Source: Planctomycetota bacterium
Lineage (GTDB): Bacteria; Planctomycetota; UBA8108; SXIK01
Reading direction: 5' to 3'
Assembly (NCBI GenBank): GCA_965223265.1
Contig: OZ244999.1
Coordinates: 7,904,001-7,968,000, forward strand
Length of the DNA: 64,000 bases
In this document: positions 53,131 through 61,314 of the stretch, in pieces
How positions within the stretch are numbered: position 1 is the first letter of the stretch
How the letters are laid out: each line of letters starts with the position of its first letter
The notes under the pieces: generated by a model
Seen by the model: the letters and a program-made list of their open reading frames with translations, nothing else
Told to the model about the DNA's origin: nothing
Database searches by the model: none
Program-made: the position numbers and the translations under genes

Positions 53131-56179
<3,049 letters not shown>

Positions 56180-56320: not shown

Positions 56321-57427
56321 TCACGGCGTCAGCACTGGCATGACCATATGACGATAGTTGCCGCGACCACGAAAAGTGGCTGGCTTTTCTCCCGTCGAGA
56401 ACTCGACTCGAACCTCCTCTTCCGGTAGGCAACGAACCGCGTCAATCAGGTAATTAGGGTTGAAATGGATCTGAATCGCATCACCCTGCATTTCAACCGG
56501 CACTTCGATTTTCGAATCACCAATGTCTGCAACATTCGTCTGCAAGCGACAGACGTTGCCGTCAAAAGAAAACACGATGGATGCCGTCTCCTTGCTCGTC
56601 ATGAGACTAGCAGCTTTCACCGCGGCGAGGAGCTCACCACGTGACACCGTCACTTTCACTTTCGTGTCTTGCGCTACAATCAGGCGGTAGTCCGGAAAGT
56701 TCCCCTGGATCAACTTCGCGCTCAATCCTCCGCGCCCAAAACGCACGTGAATATCCGGCTCACGAAGTCCGATTTCGACCACCGGTTCGCCTTGCGCCAA
56801 GACCTTGAGAAGTGTGTCAACGACACGATTCGGAACAATTCCACGCACCGTGAGATCGCCCGGATTGTCGACCCGCAACCGATCGTAAGCGAGTCGCTTG
56901 CCATCCGTCGCAACCATGGTCAATTGATCGCTTTCGACCTCAAAGAAAACGCCTGTCAGCTGGTACCGCGCAGAATCATGCGAGGACGCGACCGCAACGC
57001 GACGGAGGGATTCGACAAACCCATCGCGTTCCACGCGCCAAAAGTCCTCACCCTCCGACTGTGGGAGCAAGGGAAACTCGGCTGGATCAACCCCGACGAC
57101 GCGTAGGTCATAACCGCCGGCGTGTAGACAGGCGCCAAAACCCTCGTCCTCCTTCTCCAAGCTAATCTTGCGCTCCGGCAGCTCACGGATGAGCGCTGCG
57201 AGTCGATTCGCTGGCAACGCCAGTTCGCCGCCTTCGAGTACTTCGGTGTGCTCAATGGTCACGTGCGCGCCGAGATCAAGGTCCATTGCCTCAACCTGAA
57301 GACGCTCGTCGTTGGCCCTCAGAGCGAAATTGAGCAGAATTGGCTTTGCCTTCTGACCCGGAGGGATGATTCCCAACAGCGAGTTCAGAGCTTCGGAGAG
57401 TTCGGCTCGGTCACATTGAATTTTCAT
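56321..57427 (-). CDS. dnaN: DNA polymerase III beta sliding clamp
   Basis: KPIL, EFP.LP, RYQLTGV, VATDGKRL, LIQGNFPDY, FNPNYL.D, MVMPV. Confidence 0.97.
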   Translation of the reverse strand: MKIQCDRAELSEALNSLLGIIPPGQKAKPILLNFALRANDERLQVEAMDLDLGAHVTIEHTEVLEGGELALPANRLAALIRELPERKISLEKEDEGFGACLHAGGYDLRVVGVDPAEFPLLPQSEGEDFWRVERDGFVESLRRVAVASSHDSARYQLTGVFFEVESDQLTMVATDGKRLAYDRLRVDNPGDLTVRGIVPNRVVDTLLKVLAQGEPVVEIGLREPDIHVRFGRGGLSAKLIQGNFPDYRLIVAQDTKVKVTVSRGELLAAVKAASLMTSKETASIVFSFDGNVCRLQTNVADIGDSKIEVPVEMQGDAIQIHFNPNYLIDAVRCLPEEEVRVEFSTGEKPATFRGRGNYRHMVMPVLTP

Positions 57428-57511
57428 AGGATTCTCATAACGTTCGCTGCCCGGATCGTTTCTTAGCCCCGTCCACTACCCGGTGTGCAGCGCTCGAGAC
57501 TCCACGCTCTT

Positions 57512-57886
57512 TCACTCGGCACTCTCGCTGATCGCCGCTGGCGTGATGCCGGTATCCGCAGAGTCTGTACTTTGGTTCCGCCTCAAGAGTAAGTACACGA
57601 ACTGCGCCGCCGCGAAGATCAGCACGAACGCTCCAGCAAGCGGCAACACACTCTGGCCAGTGACCGGACTGCCCCACGTCAACTCTGAAGCCAACCATGT
57701 CGTGACGTACGTCAAGAGCCACAAGAACCATACGAGGGGCGACTTCGCCGAATGAAACCAATGGCAACAAAGCAGTTGTGAACATCCCACCACCCAGAGG
57801 AGATGGAGAGGACCGTACCAGCTCTCCAGCAACTGAGCGCTGAAGAGCGCTAAGTGTGATCCGAGAAAAAGTCCGGTCACACCCAT
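57512..57886 (-). CDS. Hypothetical small membrane protein between the putative oriC and dnaN
   Basis: About 124 aa from ATG 57886 with 3-4 hydrophobic segments and an RR stop-transfer; no family recognised. Confidence 0.45.
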   Translation of the reverse strand: MGVTGLFLGSHLALFSAQLLESWYGPLHLLWVVGCSQLLCCHWFHSAKSPLVWFLWLLTYVTTWLASELTWGSPVTGQSVLPLAGAFVLIFAAAQFVYLLLRRNQSTDSADTGITPAAISESAE

Positions 57887-57984
57887 CCAACAAAAGATTT
57901 GGCACCGACTTAGGGAAACTGGCGTGAGCACTCCGATGCCTTTCGTAGGGGCCGCGAGAGGGGTCTGATCAGCCCCGCAAGAAC

Positions 57985-58320
57985 CTAAAAAATCCAAGCC
58001 GAAATTATAGTGTTTTGGTTGTTCAAAAATCAACCAAAAAGACCTTACTTAAGATGTTATTTTGAAAAGATTTACAGAAAATTCGTTGGGCTGCAAATCG
58101 ATCGTGGAGATTGTTGTAAGTATTTTTAATATATTGAGTTATGGAGGCGCCTAAAAAGTGTGCGGATTGGTCGTGCTTTTCTTCTCTTAAGAAAGAATTC
58201 ATCTATCTGATTCGTCATCAGATTTATGAGTGCTGTCGGACACTGCTTTGGCGCCGGAAAAGATGACATAAGATTATGTGTATTATAGACTTAAGCTTAT
58301 TCAGACGATGTGGAATTCGC
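57985..58320. other. Candidate replication origin (AT-rich region between dnaA and dnaN)
   Basis: The only strongly AT-rich tract in the window; contains three 25-bp TAAG-N15-GA(C/G/T)TTA motifs; no perfect TTATCCACA box seen. Confidence 0.65.
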
Positions 58321-58481
58321 GTCGAGATCGACCCGCATCGGCGTCGTTTTGGTGACGGCAGTCGGAGTGCTTTCTTTGGGCGTCCCGGAGGCCGTCGAGG
58401 TGCGACGGCGTCGACGGTCCACTCGTCGCCGGTGTCGTCGAACGTCGACCGGATTTCCACATCCACCCGGAGCCGGCGCGG

Positions 58482-59708
58482 TCAGGTGCGCGCGGCAGCG
58501 CTGGCTCGTTTTTCAAGCGCTACCAGCAGAGCCCCGGTCTTTGCCTCCCGTGCGGCTCGTTCTTCAACGCGATGCAGCGCATAGTGAACTGTGCTGTGAT
58601 CGCGACCGCCGAACTCTCCACCGATGTCGGCGAGCGAAAGGTGAGTGAGTCGACGGGCAAGATACATAGCTACCTGGCGTGGAAAAGTCGACGCCCGCGC
58701 CTTTGAACGCGACACTAGCTGCTCGTGGTCGACGTCGAAATAGCTTTCAACCGTCTCACAAATGGCGCTGAGCATCGTCCGCTTTTCCTGGCGCACGCCG
58801 TCGAAAAGATCGTCGAGCACCGTCTTTGCTAACTCTAAAGTGACCTTGCGGCGTCGCGCTCTGGCAAGGGCCAACAACGAGTTCAGCGCACCGGTGGTTT
58901 CCGGGAAATTGCCACAGATGGTGCGCGCCATGAGGTGCGCCACTTGGCGTGGCAGATCGACCCTGCGGCGCCTGGCTTGATCGATGAGGAATCTCTCTCG
59001 CGTCGCTTCGTCGACCTCTTGAAGGTGGGTCACAAGTCCCGACTGCAGCCGAGAGCGAATGCGTCGGGGAAACCCCTCGTAGGAGCGCGGGGGTTTTAGA
59101 GTGCTTATGAGCAACCATTTGCGGTGGTCTGAAAAACACTCTAGCAGATCGAAAAGCTCACTTTGAACCCAATCAACATTCGCGATCTCATGGACGTCAT
59201 CGATCGCGAGTACATCGCAACTGTCGTAAGCGGACTGGAGGAGCGGTTTTGTCGCCTTCGAATCCAAAGCGTTGCGAATCTGGCCGGGCAAATCGGCCCC
59301 GCGCCAGTACAGCACTCGTTTCTGCTTCCCCAGATGCCAGCGGCAAAGAGCTCGCAGGAGGTGAGTTTTCCCAGTGCCGTGGCTGCCGTGAACGAGGAAG
59401 GGGCTCGACTGGCCTGCGTCTGTACAGTTGTCGAACGCGGCCAAAAAAGCGTCGTCATTGCACGGCCCGCGCACGAACGTGCTGATGGAATCCGTGGCCG
59501 AGTCACCAGGGAGGCGGGCTTGGTTCGTCCCCAGCGACGCAGGATCCAACGAATCTCCTTGGATTTCCGCGCCGTGCCGCGATCCTGCTCCACGTTGATT
59601 CGCGTAGGTCGACCAAATGCTGGGTTGACTGGCACCCCAACCGAGGATTTCGCCGTCGGTCGGAGGCTGCGCCTCCCCTGCCGGACCACCGAAGCGTTGT
59701 GAACTCAC
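58482..59708 (-). CDS. dnaA: Chromosomal replication initiator DnaA (divergent, domain I not recognisable)
   Basis: FV.G..N..A, Walker A GSHGTGKTHLL, Walker B IDDVH, RIRSRL, domain IV RQVAMYL...SL..IG..FGGRDHSTV. Start uncertain (GTG 59708 chosen; ORF open to 59801). Confidence 0.88.
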   Translation of the reverse strand: MSSQRFGGPAGEAQPPTDGEILGWGASQPSIWSTYANQRGAGSRHGAEIQGDSLDPASLGTNQARLPGDSATDSISTFVRGPCNDDAFLAAFDNCTDAGQSSPFLVHGSHGTGKTHLLRALCRWHLGKQKRVLYWRGADLPGQIRNALDSKATKPLLQSAYDSCDVLAIDDVHEIANVDWVQSELFDLLECFSDHRKWLLISTLKPPRSYEGFPRRIRSRLQSGLVTHLQEVDEATRERFLIDQARRRRVDLPRQVAHLMARTICGNFPETTGALNSLLALARARRRKVTLELAKTVLDDLFDGVRQEKRTMLSAICETVESYFDVDHEQLVSRSKARASTFPRQVAMYLARRLTHLSLADIGGEFGGRDHSTVHYALHRVEERAAREAKTGALLVALEKRASAAART

Positions 59709-60059
59709 GGACCACCTGCGTCGCGAGCGACCTGGTATGACACCGATAGGCGCCGTACGAAACGGGATCAAGCTTGCGGACGCGTCCACCTCGCGATGCA
59801 AACCGCAAACAAACTCAAACAGCCAAAGTGCATCGACTTGTCAGGCAGCGCCTGCAAGACCGTGCCGACTGTTTTCCCGCCATTTGATTGAGCCTTCGGG
59901 TAGAATGCGGATCGTAGCATGGGTGGGATGGATGCGTCAATACGCAACGTGTCTCCCCGTATTTCGATCCCTCCCGCCGCCCCGCCGACGATTTGGTTTC
60001 GCAGACACGACGGCTCGGTTTCTTCGTGACCGTTGTCGGCGCAAGAAAGAAAGCCAACG

Positions 60060-60524
60060 ATGCAGAATGACCCGCCGAGCCCGCGCGAAGAAACACCCGC
60101 GGGTGCTCTCTCGCCGGACGATCTTGTTCCGGTGGAGGTTTGGCGGCTCGCCGTCTCTTCCCGTGAGGGCGAAGACAGCGTCGTGATCCTCAAAGAGAGT
60201 CACGGAGAGAGTTTGCTTCCCATCGCCGTGGGCTACTGCGAAGCCATGGGGATTGACCGCGCCGTCGAGGGCCGCACCGGTCGTTTTCCGCTTCGGCCGC
60301 TCACGCATGAGCTGCTTGTGGTCCTGACAGGACGCTTGCGGGCCCGCATCGAAAGGGGCATAATCACCCGCCTCGATCAAGGAACGTTCTTTGCTGCCTT
60401 GGTCATCGGCCATGCAGGCGGCGAAGAGCACGTCGACGCGAGACCGAGCGATGTCATCGCCGCGACACTTGAAAGTGGTAGCGTTCTCTACGCCGCGCGT
60501 TCTCTGCTCGAGAGCGACGATTAA
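60060..60524 (+). CDS. Bifunctional nuclease (DUF151) family protein
   Basis: VVILKE, LPIAVG..EA.GI, RPLTHELL, GTFFA.L, DARPSD.IA. Confidence 0.9.
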   Translation: MQNDPPSPREETPAGALSPDDLVPVEVWRLAVSSREGEDSVVILKESHGESLLPIAVGYCEAMGIDRAVEGRTGRFPLRPLTHELLVVLTGRLRARIERGIITRLDQGTFFAALVIGHAGGEEHVDARPSDVIAATLESGSVLYAARSLLESDD

Positions 60525-60588
60525 CAGGAACCGTGGCACACACACCCGGGGCCAAGACGTGGGACAAATTGAGCGAGACAAATGACGC

Positions 60589-60682
60589 GGAGAGGTGGCT
60601 GAGCGGTCGAAAGCGGCGGATTGCTAATCCGTTGTAGAGTGATTTAGCTCTACCCCGGGTTCGAATCCCGGCCTCTCCGCCA
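60589..60682 (+). tRNA. tRNA-Ser (GCT)
   Basis: GGAGAGG/CCTCTCC acceptor stem, anticodon loop TTGCTAA, long variable arm, GGTTCGAATCC, G73 and encoded CCA. Confidence 0.97.
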
Positions 60683-60807
60683 TTTTTGTTTCGTTTTCGA
60701 AGCGTCCCGCTCGAGCATCTCTTTCGAGCACCGAGGAGTAGCTTCCCTCTGCTACTGGCGAGCGTGACTCGGCGAGGTACGCTTCTCTTGGCTACTGGCA
60801 CCAGCTG

Positions 60808-61314
60808 TCAGTCGCTCGCGCTTTCCCCAGCGCCGATGGAGGGTAGCCGTACACCGAGGATCTCGGCTTCGCAGACAACGGCGCCCGCGACGATCCCTTG
60901 CGTCAGAAACACACTGCGCGTCGGCCGCAGAACCTTTGGTTGGGCGAGAAGAAAGAGCCGATCACCTGGCCGCACAGTATCGCGAAAACGCGCTTTGTCG
61001 ATGCCACCGAAGCCGTAGAAGCCGGCACAGTCTATCGCATGGTGGGAGTAGAACGAGCACAGCTGTGCCGAGGCTTCAAGCATGAGAACCGCGGGTAATA
61101 GCGGATCTCCTGGGATGTGACCGCGTATCCAGAACTCCTCGTCGGTGACGTCGTGCAAGCCGACGATCTGCTCCCGCTCGAGGTCAAGGTGCACGATCGC
61201 GCTGAGCTGTTCGAACTCGAAACGCTGCGGATTGACCGCGCGGATTTCGGCGCGGCTAAACTGCACCTGATCGAGGTTGATGTGCTGGAGGTCGAAAAGA
61301 AGTTTGCGGGCCAT
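60808..61314 (-). CDS. 3-hydroxyacyl-ACP dehydratase (FabA/FabZ family)
   Basis: NPQRFEF, FW.RGH.PG.PLLP.VLMLEA.AQ, ARFRD.VRPGD. Start trimmed to ATG 61314. Confidence 0.88.
   Translation of the reverse strand: MARKLLFDLQHINLDQVQFSRAEIRAVNPQRFEFEQLSAIVHLDLEREQIVGLHDVTDEEFWIRGHIPGDPLLPAVLMLEASAQLCSFYSHHAIDCAGFYGFGGIDKARFRDTVRPGDRLFLLAQPKVLRPTRSVFLTQGIVAGAVVCEAEILGVRLPSIGAGESASD

Follow-up and report, generated by a model that had tools for sequence, protein, structure and literature searches.

A dnaN-linked planctomycete DnaA without domain I and without several near-universal residues: a possible anchoring subunit of a two-paralogue initiator

Canonical DnaA proteins, represented here by that of E. 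coli and by the structures 8btg and, for Aquifex, 1l8q, 2hcb and 3r8f, combine a AAA+ module (domain III) and a DNA-binding domain (domain IV), and bear Walker A and B motifs, box VII arginines and the DnaA signature; the chromosomal gene lies beside dnaN at the GC-skew minimum. The sensor I aspartate (D269 in E. coli numbering, taken throughout from the K-12 record) is reportedly tied to the unusually high affinity with which DnaA binds ATP and ADP, as the title of a 2006 article by Kawakami has it. Passages of one study name V211 and R245 as residues of domain III that bind single-stranded DNA (ssDNA) directly (PMC5835720). According to the part of a second study that deals with the sensor II arginine, this residue is needed for DnaA's regulatory inactivation (RIDA) and for intrinsic ATPase activity, E. 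coli R334A being cited as blocking both, while the Caulobacter sensor II mutant R357A is hyperactive, initiates too often and cannot substitute for the wild type (PMC3193534). Multiple DnaA paralogues occur in the Planctomycetes–Verrucomicrobia–Chlamydiae (PVC) group, an example being DnaA1 and DnaA3 of Waddlia (Chlamydiae); the excerpts of PMC4989314 on these proteins report that DnaA1 is conserved across PVC bacteria, and that chromatin immunoprecipitation of both Waddlia paralogues was too poor for targets to be called.

Here, a dnaA gene was analysed that lies on the minus strand of a 64-kb stretch of the genome of a Planctomycetota bacterium (G000:C1:7904001-7968000; 'the window' refers to this whole stretch), the genome being a single contig of 9.18 Mb. 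The gene lies beside dnaN at the skew minimum and its product shares with canonical DnaA the fold of domains III and IV, the Walker motifs, the box VII arginines and the signature. Unlike canonical DnaA, it lacks domains I and II and carries the changes D269 to L, R334 to P, K243 to V and V211 to R. The reading we favour, at a strength somewhat short of an even chance, is that it acts as a DNA-anchoring protomer that nucleates the origin oligomer, with a second DnaA of the same genome (paralogue 2) providing melting, paralogue 2 and DciA providing helicase loading, and no switch based on DnaA-ATP hydrolysis.

The open reading frame (ORF) of the window dnaA extends over 58482..59801 (minus strand), 439 codons when counted from a TTG; the end proposed for the gene when the letters alone were read (59708; hereafter the sequence-only reading) corresponds to a GTG at codon 32. 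A start further downstream is favoured because the gene call for this protein in a collection of 5.8 billion proteins (P0004, 355 aa) begins with codon 85, a TTG at window position 59549, because a Shine-Dalgarno-like AAGGAG lies 5 nt 5′ of that TTG, and because codon periodicity is seen only downstream: GC at codon positions 1/2/3 was 0.64/0.63/0.63 in codons 1-106 (no pattern) and 0.65/0.46/0.65 in codons 107-439 (a clear pattern). Judged by these signals, the true DnaA of the window is probably a protein of 355 aa composed of a tail of ~22 aa followed by domains III and IV only, and codons 1-84 of the ORF are probably not translated. The two segments are:

58482..59549, minus strand: probable true dnaA coding sequence, 355 aa (gene call, AAGGAG, codon periodicity, PF00308, PF08299, AlphaFold2 model)
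59550..59801, minus strand: in-frame upstream extension, codons 1-84, low-complexity and without domain I (GC at codon positions 1/2/3, Pfam, domain I HMM)

The protein matched PF00308 (AAA+ domain III) with 87.4 bits (cut-off 23) and PF08299 (DnaA C-terminal domain, domain IV) with 91.6 bits (cut-off 31.5). Its score with the NCBIfam equivalog TIGR00362 was 248 bits, under the cut-off of 343.9, with only model positions 111-433 matched. The absence of domain I, claimed by the sequence-only reading, was borne out: Pfam DnaA_N (PF11638) gave no match on the protein, and a hidden Markov model (HMM) of domain I built from relatives found none in the six frames of window positions 56985-61301. Two runs, on separate samples of the same study, gave contigs identical, letter by letter, over the segment 57400-60100; the assembly may itself derive from that study. 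None of the runs listed for the locus was of RNA, a result that has no bearing on whether the gene is expressed. An assembly error or frameshift hiding domain I was considered and rejected, given that no domain I signal appeared in any frame and that the contigs of the two runs agreed. The N-terminal tail of the 355-aa protein (59483-59549, minus strand) contains the sequence NQARLPG ~14 residues before the start of the AAA+ module; this sequence may bear a faint resemblance to the motif by which Hda binds the clamp.

The residue changes were analysed in five alignments: phmmer alignments to 8btg (B. subtilis), 2z4r (T. maritima) and 2hcb (Aquifex), a MAFFT alignment with E. coli DnaA, and alignments of 43 rows with relatives, of 149 rows with the nearest library representatives and of 20 rows. 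All of them agreed on the changes, and none had gaps near the sites. Residue frequencies were counted in a background of 119 diverse DnaAs (the top matches of the window protein in the 5.8-billion-protein collection) and in a nearest-relative set of 147 representatives at 50% identity (149 listed, two of which were longer than 900 aa and were dropped). The motifs were located by these alignments, and in the case of sensor II by the AlphaFold2 model as well:

58884..58913, minus strand: sensor II, GNFPETTGAL, R334 to P
59088..59108, minus strand: sensor I, ISTLKPP, D269 to L
59163..59183, minus strand: ANVDWVQ, K243 to V and R245 to W
59265..59285, minus strand: GQIRNAL, V211 to R (E. coli V211, ssDNA-binding H motif)
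58674..58712, minus strand: basic loop SRSKARASTFPRQ, Lys at R399, R407 kept
59361..59387, minus strand: Walker A, GSHGTGKTH, intact (equivalents of K178 and T179)
59193..59210, minus strand: Walker B, LAIDDV, intact
59034..59066, minus strand: box VII, RRIRSRLQSGL, with R281, R285 (Arg finger) and L290 intact
58578..58610, minus strand: DnaA signature, GGRDHSTVHYA, with canonical R432-D433-H434

R334 was present in all 119 background DnaAs and in 142 of the 147 nearest representatives; D269 in 119/119 and 118/147, respectively. Both residues were missing together in five of the 147, so that the window DnaA is extreme, yet not entirely alone, in lacking the pair. Position 243 was K or R in every background protein. 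The changes at R334, D269 and K243 proposed by the sequence-only reading thus persisted under formal alignment. Of the six differences that it listed, four stood as real losses of near-universal features, while those at R245 and R399 proved to be ordinary variation and are uninformative, because R occurs at 245 in only 22/119 background DnaAs and Lys occupies position 399 in 55/119. A change that had escaped that list is V211 to R: position 211 is I, L or V in 117/119. The position of R227 is occupied by Asp. The Walker motifs, the Arg finger and the DNA-binding signature were intact, as had been claimed (R281, R285 and R432-D433-H434 in the alignments); R281, R285, D433 and H434 were each present in 119/119 background proteins.

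When the window DnaA was modelled with AlphaFold2 (44-row alignment), a mean predicted local distance difference test (pLDDT) of 91 and a predicted template-modelling score (pTM) of 0.76 were obtained. The best Foldseek matches of the model in the PDB were the DnaA structures 8btg, 1l8q, 3r8f and 2hcb, and its domain III superposed on 8bv3 with a root-mean-square deviation of 1.9. The sensor II proline lies two residues ahead of the start of helix 215-231 of the model. As a measure of constraint, columns were chosen that 10 or more of 11 canonical DnaAs (those of group 1 in the tree described below) conserve, and those kept by each protein were counted. The window DnaA kept 30/65 columns in domain IIIa, 9/18 in the lid and 23/28 in domain IV, against 52/65, 18/18 and 23/28 for E. 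coli DnaA; paralogue 2, with 42/65, 6/18 and 14/28, showed a partial reverse of the window pattern. By this count, the window protein's domain IV is constrained like that of an ordinary DnaA, unlike its ATPase module, a pattern that argues against simple decay of the gene.

The position of the gene agrees with that of a chromosomal dnaA. The cumulative GC skew of the whole genome has its minimum at ~7.95 Mb, within the window, and its maximum at ~3.55 Mb, and the skew changes sign inside the window near position 58000. At that point lies a 300-bp spacer (58000-58300) with a GC content of 0.30-0.40, in a genome of roughly 60% GC, and this spacer is a candidate unwinding element, or oriC. The order of the locus is dnaA, AT-rich spacer, a 173-aa ORF, dnaN and dciA, the helicase operator gene dciA thus forming part of the origin locus:

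58000..58300, no strand: AT-rich spacer (GC 0.30-0.40) that separates dnaA from the next ORF, where the skew changes sign
57512..58033, minus strand: hydrophobic 173-aa ORF between dnaA and dnaN (ORF list; no Pfam family matched)
56321..57427, minus strand: dnaN (beta clamp), 368 aa (58% identity to the dnaN of the related genome G001; phmmer matches to the dnaN of relatives)
55769..56179, minus strand: dciA (helicase operator), directly after dnaN (PF05258, 32.9 bits, cut-off 24)

The 173-aa ORF falls in what is otherwise a dnaA-dnaN spacer of ~1 kb, and may or may not be a gene. On the other side, a gene with a bifunctional-nuclease domain (PF02577, 79.4 bits; 60033-60524, plus strand) is divergent from dnaA.

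Of the genes in this genome, just two encode a DnaA C-terminal domain. A second dnaA, anticipated by the sequence-only reading, is therefore present: paralogue 2 (P0003) is located at 5.35 Mb (G000:C1:5353177-5354622) and encodes 552 aa. It has domain I (PF11638, 49.6 bits) and keeps V211, K243 and R285; with 313.4 bits, it also falls under the TIGR00362 cut-off of 343.9. When the genome was searched with an Hda model, nothing scored above the cut-off, and the best match was the window DnaA itself (108 bits). Other short AAA+ matches in this search included IS21 IstB; the AAA+ module of the IstB of an IS21-type istA/istB pair (L003, G000:C1:3298774-3302073) also appears as one weak match to the DnaA model. 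Structure prediction for a complex of ATP, the 355-aa protein and paralogue 2 (residues 200-552) gave no verdict, with a score of 0.31 and a mark of 0.32, and speaks neither for nor against binding.

Carrying two DnaAs is common in the phylum, as had been supposed. A locus search with the window dnaN alone gave no related loci; one with a dnaN alignment gave 16, with titles naming metagenome-assembled genomes of Planctomycetota or Planctomycetia. Among 41 related genomes, 37 had at least two DnaA matches (these are matches, not copy numbers; those of G012 and G016 are partly pieces of one frame), and at least two DnaA_C matches were seen in 89 of 121 genomes sampled across Planctomycetota. Paralogue 2 stems from a DnaA duplication that is widespread in the phylum. 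Some Planctomycetota genomes (G114, G121 and G136) have four to six DnaA_C matches.

A PMSF tree of 42 DnaAs from 24 genomes separated a 23-row clade, named group 2 (SH-aLRT 100), and a 19-row set, named group 1 (SH-aLRT 94). The window DnaA fell outside group 2 and grouped with dnaN-linked copies from families f1 and f2 in a clade of 6 rows (SH-aLRT 98). The two groups also differ in context and in domain IV: dnaN was found inside the fetched flanks of 14 of the 19 group 1 rows and of none of the 23 in group 2, and the R-D-H triad was present in 18/19 and 0/23 rows, respectively. The window DnaA, which has the RDH triad and is linked to dnaN, differs from group 2 on both counts. Pfam DnaA_N was detected in 15/19 rows of group 1 and 20/23 of group 2. 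All group 2 rows have K or R at 243, R285 and DD (each 23/23); R281 is found in three of them, and R334 is His in six, all from the order of the window. Like the window DnaA, paralogue 2 and the other group 2 proteins are DnaA homologues with domains III and IV, and paralogue 2 also lacks D269 and R334.

Within group 1, the eleven rows of families f4-f6 are canonical, with D at 269 in ten and E in one, and R334 and K243 in all eleven. In the order to which the window belongs, D269 is retained in only two of eight group 1 rows, R334 is lost in just G001 (His) and the window (Pro), and the window, G009 and G005 copies have no basic residue at 243. Other features are lost as well: the G012 copy (L052) has R285 to L, D236 to N and no domain I; that of G005 (L046) has D236 to G and no domain I; and that of G001 (L040) has R334 to H, R281 to P and the Walker A sequence GKS-R. 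By the domain I HMM, domain I is missing from the window, G012 and G005 copies and from no other group 1 row. These comparisons indicate a stepwise degradation of group 1 DnaA within the order. Two of the G012, G005 and G001 copies are dnaN-linked, and each of the three has lost different residues of those held to be essential.

The window DnaA has diverged strongly. Its end branch measured 2.08, with a median of 0.51, the second longest overall (that of the G005 copy, which is not dnaN-linked, is 2.28) and the longest among dnaN-linked group 1 rows. While its dnaN is 58% identical to that of G001, the adjoining dnaA is only 25-28% identical to the G001 copy, depending on the alignment. Apart from the protein itself, the matches listed from the 5.8-billion-protein collection were all at most 37% identical to it, and the best non-self match in a library of 1.84 billion representatives was 38% identical. 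The best explanation, taking context and residues together, is that the window gene would be the ancestral, dnaN-linked chromosomal dnaA of an uncultured Planctomycetia genome, with an approximately unbiased (AU) test that is not decisive; synteny and the R-D-H triad are the stronger arguments for orthology, since the placement in the tree carries caveats.

Short DnaAs at an origin are also found in another family of the phylum. In family f9 (G074, G109, G154 and G140; L096-L098 and L102), as in the window, a DnaA of 340-344 aa without domain I occurs; its gene is the first of the record in three complete genomes, with a longer second copy elsewhere, and dnaN lies within 4 kb of it in G109 and G154. 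Unlike the window copy, with which they are 20-22% identical, the f9 short proteins have ED in Walker B, N or T at 433 and a basic residue at 243, and a quick LG+G4 tree places them within the group 2 clade. The f9 short DnaA looks to have reached a similar architecture independently. Since the group 2 clade takes in both f9 copies, a canonical group 1 DnaA may be missing in this family.

In the mechanism we favour, the 355-aa DnaA would bind double-stranded origin DNA through its canonical domain IV, and would bind ATP loosely, without hydrolysing it. Its box VII arginines would reach into the ATP site of the neighbouring protomer, and the protein would be the protomer that anchors or nucleates the origin complex, with single-strand capture and helicase recruitment coming from paralogue 2 (by means of its domain I, K243 and hydrophobic residue 211) and DciA. 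Three predictions follow from residue roles: without D269, nucleotides should be bound loosely; without the pore-facing residues at 211 and 243 and without domain I, ssDNA should be captured poorly and the helicase should not be recruited through domain I; and without R334, the protein should be locked with ATP and not dead. The sequence-only reading had counted the last change among those pointing to a non-unwinding DnaA, but loss of the sensor II arginine is no evidence of an inactive initiator, given the hyperactive, over-initiating Caulobacter R357A in the passages of PMC3193534 cited above. The E. coli R334A and Caulobacter R357A mutants share with the window DnaA the loss of the sensor II arginine; they are otherwise wild type and, as far as those passages go, over-initiate (PMC3193534), whereas in the window the loss arose naturally, comes together with other losses and, unlike in the engineered mutants, is common to both paralogues of the genome. 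Since the sensor II arginine is missing from both paralogues and no Hda was found, initiation in this bacterium is probably not timed by a switch from DnaA-ATP to DnaA-ADP.

Several observations weigh against the anchoring role or its assumptions. Some concern the target of domain IV. No exact TTWTNCACA box, which we take to be the DnaA-box consensus, was found in the dnaA-dnaN spacer (57428-58481); sites with one mismatch numbered four, a count reached by 6 of 200 mononucleotide shuffles. The same spacer of G021, a class-level relative with a canonical DnaA, contains three exact boxes. The sequence TTATCCACA with at most one mismatch occurred at two sites in the 64 kb (3.8 expected), neither of them near dnaA, and with at most two mismatches it formed no cluster at the origin. 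The window DnaA differs from canonical DnaA in lacking an exact box cluster nearby, as it does in its TIGR00362 score. Others concern the partner. In paralogue 2, Ser, His and Ala replace D269, R334 and R281, respectively, and positions 432-434 read RSH, non-canonical with respect to RDH. The catalytic second paralogue postulated by the sequence-only reading is thus partly supported: paralogue 2 supplies the domain I, V211 and K243 that the window protein lacks, and it is not catalytic in the sense intended because it too is without both sensor residues, besides lacking R281 and RDH. In families f4-f6, moreover, the paralogue 2 type is accompanied by a group 1 DnaA that is fully canonical, so that its ancestral role need not be initiation. 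As to ancestry, forcing the window DnaA into group 2 cost 10.7 log-likelihood units and was not rejected by the AU test (p-AU 0.082), a test on which it bears that the groups were named after the tree had been inspected; in the quick LG+G4 tree the protein stayed outside the group 2 clade (SH-aLRT 99), with its place within group 1 unsettled. Finally, in the Caulobacter model, as given in the same passages, loss of the sensor II arginine alone leaves an active initiator (PMC3193534).

An unlikely alternative, though one to be taken seriously, is that the window DnaA is a regulator or transcription factor only, which would bind boxes and occlude or mark the origin, or regulate dnaN and its own promoter, outside the unwinding oligomer, with paralogue 2 as the sole initiator. 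This would fit with domain IV being its best-kept part (23/28 conserved columns), with the repeated loss of AAA+ features in group 1 copies of the order (G012, G005 and G001), and with the universal retention of K/R at 243, R285 and DD in group 2. A pure DNA-binding factor, however, would have no need of the Walker motifs, R281, R285 and L290, all of which are kept, and how paralogue 2, without the R-D-H triad, would find the origin by itself is not obvious.

Distinctly less probable is an autonomous but rewired initiator, melting the origin alone through other ssDNA-binding residues and passing the helicase to DciA without a domain I. The gene does lie, beside dnaN and dciA, where the skew puts the origin; Caulobacter sensor II mutants are still active initiators, according to the passages cited (PMC3193534); and the four f9 genomes also have a short dnaA without domain I. 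Missing from the window protein, however, are the hydrophobic 211 and the basic 243, present in 117/119 and 119/119 background DnaAs, and the f9 short proteins, which retain the basic 243, belong to a different clade.

It is a little less likely still that the gene is decaying under relaxed selection, with little or no function, after a takeover by paralogue 2. Its end branch, the lack of any relative above 38% identity in the 1.84 billion representatives, and the loss of domain I and of several otherwise invariant residues would be expected of such a gene; an intact open frame of 452 codons, a domain IV under canonical constraint, conserved Walker motifs and box VII arginines, a confidently predicted fold and a Shine-Dalgarno-like site ahead of the 355-aa start would not. 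Hda lacks a domain IV. That the window protein is an Hda-like inactivator with a retained DNA-binding domain, acting on paralogue 2, is very improbable: it gives the best match to the Hda model in the genome (108 bits), resembles Hda in its AAA+ module with an Arg finger, its short N-terminal tail without domain I and the faintly motif-like NQARLPG, and lies beside dnaN, but it scores 109.7 bits with TIGR03420 (cut-off 194.8), differs from Hda by a full domain IV, and its presumed target lacks the sensor II arginine needed for stimulated hydrolysis.

Under the anchoring reading, one broader interpretation may be put forward, although it is doubtful: that, in this lineage, the tasks which one DnaA fulfils at different places in the E. 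coli origin complex are now fixed in separate genes, one for an origin-bound reader and anchor made of domains III and IV and the other for a distant paralogue with domain I and the ssDNA pore, with timing independent of a cycle of DnaA-ATP hydrolysis.

The wider pattern is one of a duplication widespread in the phylum, a dnaN-linked copy that has been remodelled repeatedly, and short origin DnaAs in another family. Since full-text literature searches, confined to the main articles, turned up nothing published on paralogous or short DnaAs of planctomycetes, and the DnaA or paralogue passages retrieved from two papers dealt only with genome orientation and ortholog clustering, Planctomycetota offer a promising and apparently unstudied field for work on how initiators evolve. 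An origin-linked DnaA without domain I, D269, R334 and a basic residue at 243 (the three residues being present in 119/119 DnaAs elsewhere) is a natural experiment on which functions of the initiator a cell can do without or shift to another protein. Should the two paralogues co-assemble, they would show a homo-oligomeric AAA+ initiator becoming a hetero-oligomer with specialised subunits and, if the proposed timing is true, this would be a bacterium that controls initiation without an ATP/ADP switch.

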